Positions 38,381 to 41,693 of a stretch of 64,000 nucleotides of DNA are shown piece by piece; positions within the stretch are counted from its first letter, which is position 1; the number at the start of each line of letters is the position of its first letter. The DNA is from Candidatus Obscuribacteraceae bacterium (GTDB lineage: Bacteria > Cyanobacteriota > Vampirovibrionia > Obscuribacterales > Obscuribacteraceae): positions 416,001-480,000 of the forward strand of contig JBGAHS010000007.1 of the NCBI GenBank assembly GCA_044226015.1, in the 5' to 3' direction. The position numbers and the translations under genes were made by a program. The notes under the pieces are model-generated. The model did no database searches, had not been told where the DNA came from, and saw only the letters and a program-made list of their open reading frames with translations.

Positions 38381-38872
38381 TCAAATGTGCTGACTTAGTC
38401 CAAATTTTCTTGCTATTGTTGCTGAGTCTCCGCCCCAAACTTCTGTGGGAGGAGGTCCGAAATACTTCTCGTATTCAACTAGCGTTTCTAAGTACAGCTC
38501 ACGAAACTGCTTATTCTCTGCATCATCTCCTCTGCCTGGCTCATGATGAAGAAAGTCGATTTCCAATTCATTTCTGCAAAAGCTCTGGTATGATCGCGTG
38601 TAAAGTAAGTGCATGTGCCAGACTGTGTCAATCACTATGGATGGTACCACTCGTCCAGGCTGTCGGCTGGCTAAAAATGCGAATTTGAGGTATTCAGATA
38701 TTGCTAGCCTCGTGAACTCGTCTGACCAATCCATTTCTGCTGCAAGAGATTTTGATAAAGGTAGAACTGCTGACGGATCATCGATTGAAAAATCCAGAAC
38801 TTTCTTCAGTCGTTTGAGTTCTGGCTCAATTAAGTGTTCTGGCTTTGACTTGTCCGGCAGGCAATCTCCCAC
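38381..38872 (-). CDS. Stand-alone glycine-rich-domain-containing (DUF1399/GRDP-like) protein, putative His-coordinated metalloenzyme
   Basis: FSIDDP, WS....AISEYLKF.FLA, VVPS..IDTVWHMHLLYTRSY..FC, FLHHEP, Y..TL..Y...FG.PP..VW. GTG start at 38872 lies 8 nt past the upstream peptide stop. Confidence 0.78.
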   Translation of the reverse strand: MGDCLPDKSKPEHLIEPELKRLKKVLDFSIDDPSAVLPLSKSLAAEMDWSDEFTRLAISEYLKFAFLASRQPGRVVPSIVIDTVWHMHLLYTRSYQSFCRNELEIDFLHHEPGRGDDAENKQFRELYLETLVEYEKYFGPPPTEVWGGDSATIARKFGLSQHI

Positions 38873-38879
38873 ATTTCTT

Positions 38880-39053
38880 TTATTTACAGGATCCGCTGCA
38901 ACTGCCACTGCATTTTCCCTCAATTGCATTGTCTTTCTTGCCGCCTTTTCTCTGCCCGCCAAAGAATTTTCCCCTGCCCGGCCCTGCGACCAGTGTTTCA
39001 AGTTCGCTTTCTTCCGTGCTGGAGGACTTTTCGGTTTTAACTTCTGCGCTCAT
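38880..39053 (-). CDS. 57-aa peptide MSAEVKTEKSSSTEESELETLVAGPGRGKFFGGQRKGGKKDNAIEGKCSGSCSGSCK, candidate RiPP-like precursor / metal-binding peptide
   Basis: Translated by hand (below the ORF-track cut-off). ATG preceded by GAAGAGGG. Acidic leader-like half, Gly/Lys-rich middle, CxxxCxxxC tail. Confidence 0.68.
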   Translation of the reverse strand: MSAEVKTEKSSSTEESELETLVAGPGRGKFFGGQRKGGKKDNAIEGKCSGSCSGSCK

Positions 39054-39273
39054 GGCTACCCTCTTCAGAAAGTGACCTAAAGTCTAGCGCATCGTTTCGC
39101 TCGAAATTGCACTCTAGCATTAAATCTTGGGCTCATCCCCTGGGGGAGGTAGGCATGTTTAGAAGTCACTTTTGCGCTTTGCCATGTTTAGTAATGTTCA
39201 GGTAACCCAGCGCGACTATCTTGTATTTACCGAGCTATTCGTAGTTCAGAGGGTATTGGCTGGGGGAAAGACT

Positions 39274-40537: not shown

Positions 40538-41110
40538 TTAATTGCAGTTGCCATTCAATTGGATGGTCTTCTTCGTCGGAGGCGGAAGCGCTTCTAGCTT
40601 TGCCTCAAGCTCTTGAGTGAATGGCTTAGGTGAAACGAACCATCCGAAATGCATTAATTGATCACGCTCAGGCACCAGGAACAAGAACTGTTTCTGTGGT
40701 GGGTGCACAGTGCTTATTGTGAAAGGCTGATTGTTCGTGTTTCCCAAGTAAGATACAACAAGTTCTTTTCCTTTCTTCTTCACTGATACGTCATAAACTA
40801 GGCAACTGTTAGACTTTGCATTTATCTGGACATCTTGATTGAGAGCCAGTTTTGTTGATGATGTGTTTCTATAGATCTTCAAGATTTTGAAGTGCTGTTT
40901 GCGGCATTCCAGCGCCATTGTGTCTGTTTTTACAGTTTGGCCTTCCTTCAAATCGTCATACTCTTGCTTGCCTGATTCGGCAAGCAGAATGATTGGAGCC
41001 GTTGACATGGCGTCTTCCATGCTTGTTCGCATAACGGATTCAGCTTTTGCTCCTATCGTAGAAAAAGCGCAAATGAGTATGCTCGCTAACGTGCACTTTT
41101 TGATTTGCAT
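40538..41110 (-). CDS. Hypothetical secreted protein, tandem paralog A
   Basis: Signal peptide. ECRKQ, KSNSC, HFGWFVSP and C-terminal Cys shared with the neighbour. Confidence 0.78.
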   Translation of the reverse strand: MQIKKCTLASILICAFSTIGAKAESVMRTSMEDAMSTAPIILLAESGKQEYDDLKEGQTVKTDTMALECRKQHFKILKIYRNTSSTKLALNQDVQINAKSNSCLVYDVSVKKKGKELVVSYLGNTNNQPFTISTVHPPQKQFLFLVPERDQLMHFGWFVSPKPFTQELEAKLEALPPPTKKTIQLNGNCN

Positions 41111-41123
41111 ACTACCTCATTTG

Positions 41124-41693
41124 CTACTTGCTACAGTCGGGAAGCAATTGGATAACCGACTTGACTGGTTTGTGTGCCACAGAACACTCTCTTTCGATTG
41201 ATTCCTTCCACGGTTGTGGCGAAACGAACCACCCGTAGTGTTCAAGCTGACCTGGCATATATTGCGAGGGAGATAGAAACAGGATTTCTTTTTCGTGCTG
41301 GTTGTATACGTCGACCGTTGTGGGTGCATCCATGTCAGTGCGTGAAATTACAAGTTTGTTGCCTCGTTTGCTTACGATGATGCTGTTTACGATGCAAGAG
41401 TTTGATTTGTGGTTAACCTCGACGCAAGCGTTAGGATTCAATTTGACTTTGCTGTTGTTTCGCAAGACTTTGAGAATCTTGTATTTTTGTTTGCGGCATT
41501 CAAACTCATTGCTCTCCATCTTTCGCTTCTCGCCTTCCTTCATATCATCAAATTGCATTGCCCCTGTTTCTACCACAAGGACAATTTGGGCGTTGGAAAT
41601 AGCTTCATTGAGCGAAGTTGTTGCGACGGGTTTTGAAATTGCAGGAGCTTGCAATAGGATTGCAGCGCATAGAACAAATTTTGTAAGTTTCAT
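41124..41693 (-). CDS. Hypothetical secreted protein, tandem paralog B
   Basis: Signal peptide. ECRKQ, KSNSC, HYGWFVSP and C-terminal Cys. Confidence 0.78.
   Translation of the reverse strand: MKLTKFVLCAAILLQAPAISKPVATTSLNEAISNAQIVLVVETGAMQFDDMKEGEKRKMESNEFECRKQKYKILKVLRNNSKVKLNPNACVEVNHKSNSCIVNSIIVSKRGNKLVISRTDMDAPTTVDVYNQHEKEILFLSPSQYMPGQLEHYGWFVSPQPWKESIERECSVAHKPVKSVIQLLPDCSK

Follow-up and report, generated by a model that had tools for sequence, protein, structure and literature searches.

A conserved Cys-tailed peptide gene paired with a stand-alone GRDP/DUF1399-like gene in Obscuribacteraceae: a candidate precursor and maturase

In the window, the whole stretch of 64,000 nucleotides analysed from a Candidatus Obscuribacteraceae genome (G000, C10:416001-480000), a putative precursor peptide gene of 57 codons (38880..39053, minus strand) is followed by the gene of a 163-residue, stand-alone GRDP/DUF1399-like domain protein with a GTG start (38381..38872, minus strand; PF27765, UCP032817-like). 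Obscuribacteraceae is a non-photosynthetic family of the Melainabacteria, and the best named matches of the domain protein come from it. Related peptides were found directly upstream of a tail-less GRDP/DUF1399-like gene at all nine loci with gene context, and the precursor-like peptide with its dedicated GRDP-like partner is real and conserved. The two genes have stayed together as a pair, while their neighbourhoods are otherwise unrelated. They would form a two-gene, translationally coupled cassette, in which a putative precursor peptide is served in trans by a putative maturase. We give even chances to the covalent precursor-maturase reading of the cassette as a whole.

The peptide gene is supported by the nine loci, by a 12-row alignment and by a codon-position signal. 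Translation of the minus strand agrees with the earlier note, which had described an open frame with an ...ELETLVAG segment, a Gly/Lys stretch and a terminal C-x3-C-x3-C-K, and the ribosome binding site claimed for it was confirmed as a Shine-Dalgarno-like GAGGG (39059..39063, minus strand) 5 nt before the ATG. The ending is more than chance, since only 6 of the 19,521 ATG-started ORFs of 40-80 residues in G000 share a CxxxCxxxC end. Exactly three Cys are present in all nine peptide genes with context; the CxxxCxxxC end described earlier is present here, but the spacing is not invariant in the family, as it is C-x3-C-x3/4-C in five genes and CC-x4/6-C in four. All 12 aligned peptides have G28, F30, F31 and, among the Cys, the first and the last. 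The motif G-x-G-x-F-F-x-G-x-R-K (residues 23-36, 38946..38987, minus strand), marked out by invariant columns, may have a role in recognition, and the Cys core K-C-x3-C-x3-C-K (residues 47-57, 38883..38915, minus strand) would be the substrate or ligand part.

The two halves of the peptide evolve differently. Mismatches at codon positions 1, 2 and 3 of the nine genes were 0.34, 0.36 and 0.65 in the C-terminal half and 0.61, 0.60 and 0.73 in the N-terminal half; the C-terminal half is under codon-level constraint, with the third-position excess of coding sequence, and the N-terminal half is without it. The N-terminal half is variable and hydrophilic, and no signal peptide was evident in it by inspection. 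The ELxxxELxxVxG-type RiPP leader suspected there proved to be private to this copy, the corresponding part of the relatives being variable and mostly basic. A Nif11/NHLP leader motif with a cleavage site was likewise not recovered, the N-terminal half being unconserved in 12 homologs and giving no model match; the peptide as a whole matched no RiPP leader model of Pfam or NCBIfam, and the Atlas returned nothing for it (0.77). Longer proteins bearing the peptide sequence were absent among 7,998 scored, which is weak evidence. P0159, which had clustered with a peptide homolog, is by inspection an unrelated protein of the VWA type.

The domain homolog search was run on 41 related genomes and then on all 104 genomes of the family, 41 of which gave a match. 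The peptide profile matched in 6 of the 104, each time beside the domain gene; the peptide locus of G118 was found from the domain side only, and a protein database search added further peptide homologs without gene context. The nine paired loci belong to G000, G002 (two loci), G004, G006, G007, G117, G118 and one metagenome contig. The earlier note had proposed to look for conserved short Cys-rich ORFs upstream of tail-less homologs; wherever members of this peptide family have gene context, they lie directly upstream of such a gene (9/9 loci), and the note's view that a genuine peptide gene is coupled to a GRDP-like domain standing alone is supported.

The GTG start assigned earlier to the larger gene was borne out, while the distance of 8 nt given from the peptide stop is an offset count, the gap itself being 7 nt. 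Upstream starts of the larger gene (TTG at 39001, or the ATG of MQLREN), which had been set against a separate peptide, found no support in the frame comparison. The open frame upstream of the domain gene runs 170 nt back only here, and at most 46 nt in the eight relatives. The offset between the frames of the peptide and the domain gene is +1 once, +2 five times and 0 three times, and a start codon of the domain gene lies 2-29 nt past the peptide stop at eight of the nine loci (at the ninth only at -10). With starts gathered close behind the peptide stop, in a relative frame that differs between loci, the two ORFs are coupled genes rather than a single gene with a frameshift. The varying offset was also the reason to reject programmed frameshifting and an N-terminal extension of the domain protein.

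Instead, the peptide might be an upstream ORF with a regulatory role or a remnant of gene fission, maintained for translational coupling only, as the tight coupling of the genes and the unconstrained N-terminal half would allow. Against this, codons vary synonymously across two genera while the F-F pair, the Gly and the three Cys stay the same, and unrelated proteins next to the domain also bear Cys tails; we hold this explanation to be highly improbable.

Both ORFs of the cassette are on the minus strand, flanked by a convergent metallophosphoesterase gene and a divergent M20 peptidase gene, and czcBA lies beyond the metallophosphoesterase. The surroundings of the cassette are unlike at each of the nine loci, and four window neighbours tested by tblastn had homologs in none of the eight other loci (2.7-11 kb). 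Linkage to Czc, the metallophosphoesterase or the M20 peptidase was rejected on this result. The CzcAB-type exporter, taken earlier as a hint of metal handling, lost its weight, because a gene on the opposite strand intervenes between czcBA and the cassette and the flanks of the eight other loci hold no homolog. No promoter or terminator was recognised on either side of the cassette in a consensus scan, RNA structure upstream was no better than that of shuffled sequence (z -0.8 to 0.1), and neither a known maturase nor a C39 transporter was found among the neighbouring ORFs. Elsewhere in the window (40538-41693, minus strand), two tandem secreted-looking proteins of about 190 residues are apparently paralogous and belong to no significant Pfam family.

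The assignment of the 163-residue protein was made from Pfam, the Atlas and an AF2 model. Its match to the Pfam GRDP-like model PF07173 (16.1 bits, E 0.019) is under the gathering cut-off of 22.7, and its nearest homolog, P0003 (51% identical), is over the cut-off with 27.7 bits. Among the matches of the 163-residue protein in the Pfam copy searched, PF27765 did not appear. The Atlas placed it at 0.92-0.93 to PF27765 clusters, with 206-212 shared features and 25 of 30 matches in the PF27765 set, at a recognition of 2166, under the 2300 mark. The PF27765/GRDP motifs E..Y, P-S, DxxWHxHL, Y..C, HHxP, T..Y..F and P..W are all present, S78 is present and all invariant family columns agree. The WHxHxL..Y...C...HHxP motif of the GTG-started protein, as described in the earlier note, was found in the 38381-38872 ORF (minus strand) as DxxWHxHL...Y...C...HHxP. 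In 140 homologs E60, D82, W85, H86, H88, Y95, C99, H109, H110, T130, Y134 and W146 are nearly invariant. The stretch with D82, W85, H86, H88, Y95, C99, H109 and H110 (38543..38629, minus strand), whose residues are each present in 135-140 of the 140, is a candidate active site by conservation and, by the nature of its residues, a putative metal site. The domain shows no motif for SAM, ATP or flavin.

The AF2 model of the protein is all-helical (pLDDT 89). Neither Foldseek (best E 1.1) nor VIA (best Z 4.4, rmsd 2.9, 74 aligned) gave a clear solved relative of the fold, and a PDB sequence search matched only the Gly and membrane parts of fused homologs. In the viral structure library BFVD, only GRDP-like or uncharacterised giant-virus proteins were hit; the GRDP-like folds came from Harvfovirus, Gaeavirus, Terrestrivirus and Orpheovirus. 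The GRDP/DUF1399 family spans bacteria, plants and giant viruses, with 5,382 representatives at 50% identity (E up to 0.001), and G000 has a single copy by domain profile search. Some cis-tailed homologs are without H88 or H86 and some tandem copies without C99. At L151, L152 and L010 the His/Cys motifs are degenerate, in tandem pairs or in single copies, and at L152 a C99-less copy precedes a Cys-tailed one.

The domain family goes together with Cys tails at the C-terminus, carried by the domain protein itself or by a separate one. Among the top 150 family representatives 77 have a Cys/Gly/Ser tail, and many of the rest look truncated. In plant GRDPs, DUF1399 is joined to a Cys-interspersed Gly tail of the type [CG]GGGCGG[GC] (PMC4299439). 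A set of 143 distinct family ORFs, which includes eight peptide loci and many kin, was divided into 71 with a Cys tail in cis, 4 at contig edges and 68 complete and tail-less. Of these last, 36 stand behind a Cys-tailed gene, defined as one ending in at least two Cys within 12 residues, compared with 5 of 281 control genes. In 3 of the 68 a longer ORF exists than the qualifying upstream one; the other 29 fall outside the rule, and about 7 of them have a tail that it missed. The upstream Cys-tailed partners are unrelated to each other, and comprise membrane proteins with Gly/Ser/Cys tails, Ser/Thr kinases, a coiled protein and short peptides.

Several of these partners may be described separately. 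At L048, L058, L061 and L077 Ser/Thr kinases with a short C-x3-C end are coupled to a tail-less GRDP-like gene; these partners are cyanobacterial and the domains of the four loci make one branch. At L117 and L139 (G119 and G118) a coiled protein of about 110 residues with a Cys-rich C-terminus lies directly upstream of another GRDP-like gene, and would be a further putative precursor type. In a quick tree of 139 of the 143 rows, with domains below 95 residues dropped, the nine peptide-linked domains form one clade with those of L016 and L109 (SH-aLRT 97). Beside the GRDP-like genes of L016 and L109 stand large, otherwise unrelated neighbours (L016:539-1402, L109:2884-3834), which have in common a 47-residue C-terminal module with F/W-P-G-K and CCC, 45% identical. 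This module resembles the sister-branch peptides by eye and not by profile score, the peptide-family profile being not significant against the module of the L016 neighbour (0.5%). The earlier idea that a fused tail had been split off as a separate gene is thus upheld in its general logic by the cis and trans Cys tails; it is doubtful that the usual Gly/Ser tail was literally split off, given the F-F motif that the peptide has of its own and, as weak evidence, the lack of a longer protein bearing it among those scored.

The strongest argument for an action of the domain on the tail comes from TIGR04222 proteins. Their tails have been proposed as MNIO substrates, and many TIGR04222 loci are without MNIO (PMC12452194); neither GRDP nor DUF1399 occurs in the main text of that paper. 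In our count of 39 TIGR04222 loci over the cut-off, 14 had GRDP only (as a separate gene in 3), 11 had MNIO only, none had both and 14 had neither within 1.5 kb (Fisher p 0.003 for exclusion, kin not corrected). In order to lessen kin bias, phylum samples of 151, 401, 201 and 201 genomes were drawn, of which three were used; the Verrucomicrobiota sample (centre genome only) and G000 were left out of the count. Four of the 14 'neither' loci (L247, L248, L249 and L253) have a radical SAM/SPASM enzyme directly behind the TIGR04222 Cys tail, with SbtM and ACGX types as best models, all under cut-off; several others are at contig ends, are without Cys tails or look broken. In Obscuribacteraceae, MNIO and no GRDP was found at all 30 TIGR04222 loci examined of 52 matches, and the only TIGR04222 gene of G000 (G000:C4:277738-280109), which has a Cys/Gly tail, overlaps an MNIO gene. 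By a home-built profile, 38 of 80 GRDP loci are TIGR04222 fusions. At TIGR04222 tails, loci with the domain have neither MNIO nor radical SAM partners, which makes the evidence stronger than the earlier note could know. For the 57-residue peptide this slot exchange is indirect, as the support for a maturase derives from the TIGR04222 tails and not from the peptide itself; neither the peptide nor the 163-residue ORF had an NCBIfam match, to TIGR04222 or otherwise. For a natural homolog in which domain and tail are fused, AF2 predicts the tail as unordered and undocked (pLDDT 53-59).

Because it fills the gene slot of known peptide-modifying enzymes elsewhere, the GRDP-like family is probably a new kind of peptide-modifying enzyme. 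It is likely that the domain binds the peptide, probably through G-x-F-F-x-G-R/K, and engages its Cys-x3-Cys-x3-Cys end. Whether it then covalently modifies the Cys at a metal site formed by D82, H86, H88, C99, H109 and H110 (with E60) we rate as evenly balanced. Since no SAM, ATP or flavin motif is present, and by analogy with MNIO, BURP and DUF3328, the chemistry would most likely be an O2- and metal-dependent oxidation or cross-linking of Cys.

Three other roles for the domain were weighed. It could be a recognition partner of the RRE type, with the chemistry done by an MNIO encoded elsewhere; MNIO (PF05114) is indeed present in 100 of the 104 family genomes (up to 6 matches each, some in frames of 600-850 residues), with 4 matches in G000. 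No MNIO stands beside the cassette in G000, and one of the eight other loci (G004) has one 1.5 kb away. There, an HvfC-like partner and an HvfB/BufB-like MNIO (L206:2201-3923) lie downstream on the same strand, with an antisense gene between the pair and the cassette and no precursor among ORFs of at least 140 residues. Given that an adjacent MNIO occurs at 0 of 80 GRDP loci (flanks up to 4 kb) and 0 of 14 GRDP-TIGR04222 loci, and that catalytic-type residues are conserved in the domain, we consider this role very unlikely. A Cys-His-Asp peptidase or transpeptidase, with C99 as nucleophile, might cut or transfer the Cys tail: C99, H86/H88/H110 and D82 are near-invariant and no protease is linked to the cassette. 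That role is quite unlikely, as the fold matches no protease, tail length is highly variable and the mutual exclusion with MNIO and radical SAM is easier to reconcile with modification than with cleavage. The third role, that of a non-covalent metallochaperone or scaffold which loads or holds a metal or Fe-S cluster on the three-Cys tail, would agree with the conserved His/Cys-rich set and the missing cofactor motif, as well as with a weak CsoR-like operator, strong copies of which precede secreted Cys-pair peptides in the genus. Against it, the domain occupies, at the same tails, a slot that otherwise goes to either of two enzyme superfamilies, MNIO or radical SAM, and the metallochaperone appears unlikely.

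The operator-like site is a G/C pseudo-palindrome (39135..39147, no strand assigned) about 80-95 nt upstream of the peptide ATG. In the type-2 CsoR operator, 2-4 bases separate two short G/C tracts, and the flanks are AT-rich inverted TAC/GTA sequences (PMC3902906); the G/C tracts are present here and the flanks are absent. A similar site lies at the same distance in G006 and at one G002 locus, and not at five other loci. With a CsoR-like PWM the scores were 9.5 (rank 34) in G000, 15.4 in G006, 7.8 in G002 and at most 3.1 in the five others, and by a simple count 43 of 3,026 intergenic windows in G000 score as well as this site. G000 has one CsoR/RicR-like gene (C1:1129131); the 260 nt in front of it, and those in front of the gene of the copper-type ATPase, are free of G/C palindromes. 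The site hints at copper control of the cassette, as a post hoc lead. Under the covalent reading, the product would stay in the cytoplasm, the cassette being linked to neither a signal peptide nor a transporter or protease; that it does so and acts as a ligand of copper, or of another soft metal like it, with a CsoR-family regulator in control, is possible, though doubtful.

Stronger CsoR-type operator-like sequences, C6-N-G6 palindromes that stand singly or as tandem pairs with a 35-bp spacing, were seen elsewhere in the genus (G000:C11:1224764-1225174, which is L234; L210-L213, L232 and L233). They directly precede one or two secreted peptides of 48-50 residues with three Cys-Cys pairs, mostly followed by a Cys-rich protein of 130-150 residues. 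The arrangement occurs in seven genomes of the genus and gave no NCBIfam match above cut-off; the peptides are candidate copper-induced, periplasmic, metallothionein-like peptides.

In the widest form of the precursor-maturase reading, GRDP/DUF1399 (PF27765) would be a third, structurally unprecedented family of Cys-tail maturases, interchangeable with MNIO and radical SAM/SPASM enzymes in the slot that their genes take. It would act autocatalytically when fused (bacterial fusions, and plant GRDP1/2 with Cys-Gly tails) and in trans on short peptides, here giving a copper-responsive cytoplasmic ligand; we place this somewhat below an even chance. If true, RiPP maturases would gain a new fold, the TIGR04222 loci without MNIO would be explained, and there would be a biochemical function to propose for the plant GRDP stress proteins. 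The main texts of the openly accessible papers searched gave no description of a peptide-GRDP system, and no biochemical activity or solved structure of the GRDP/DUF1399 domain was found. This locus reduces the family to a soluble 163-residue protein and a 57-residue peptide, the simplest test system.

Among known systems, the 163-residue protein shares its domain family with the PF27765/PF07173 GRDPs, including Arabidopsis AtGRDP1/2. Plant members carry the Cys-interspersed Gly tail at their own end (PMC4299439), whereas here the domain stands alone with a separate peptide. The TIGR04222/MNIO (PF05114) systems are alike in the Cys/Gly/Ser tail as proposed maturase substrate (PMC12452194), and GRDP-like domains are fused or adjacent to TIGR04222 at many loci. 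The 57-residue peptide differs in being soluble and short, with neither a TIGR04222 domain nor an adjacent MNIO.

Bufferins and methanobactins are Cys-derived copper binders made by MNIO enzymes. The cassette is similar in its small Cys-bearing precursor beside a putative metal-dependent maturase and in a possible copper link, but it has no MNIO, DUF2063 partner, DoxX or signal peptide, and its copper link comes from a weak operator-like site. Borosins are made by an enzyme family fused to its own substrate or split from it and acting in trans, and the BURP-domain and DUF3328 proteins are His/Cys cyclases. With these the cassette shares, as an analogy only, the fused or trans arrangement of enzyme and substrate and the His/Cys motifs, while no relation of sequence or fold to the GRDP-like domain was detected. 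The likeness to Nif11/NHLP precursors is a superficial ELxxxEL..AG stretch in this one copy, absent from the peptide relatives. In the general sense of a RiPP system, a small precursor gene is co-conserved with a putative maturase gene at 9/9 loci; although it fits no tested RiPP family, the cassette would work like a split RiPP system.
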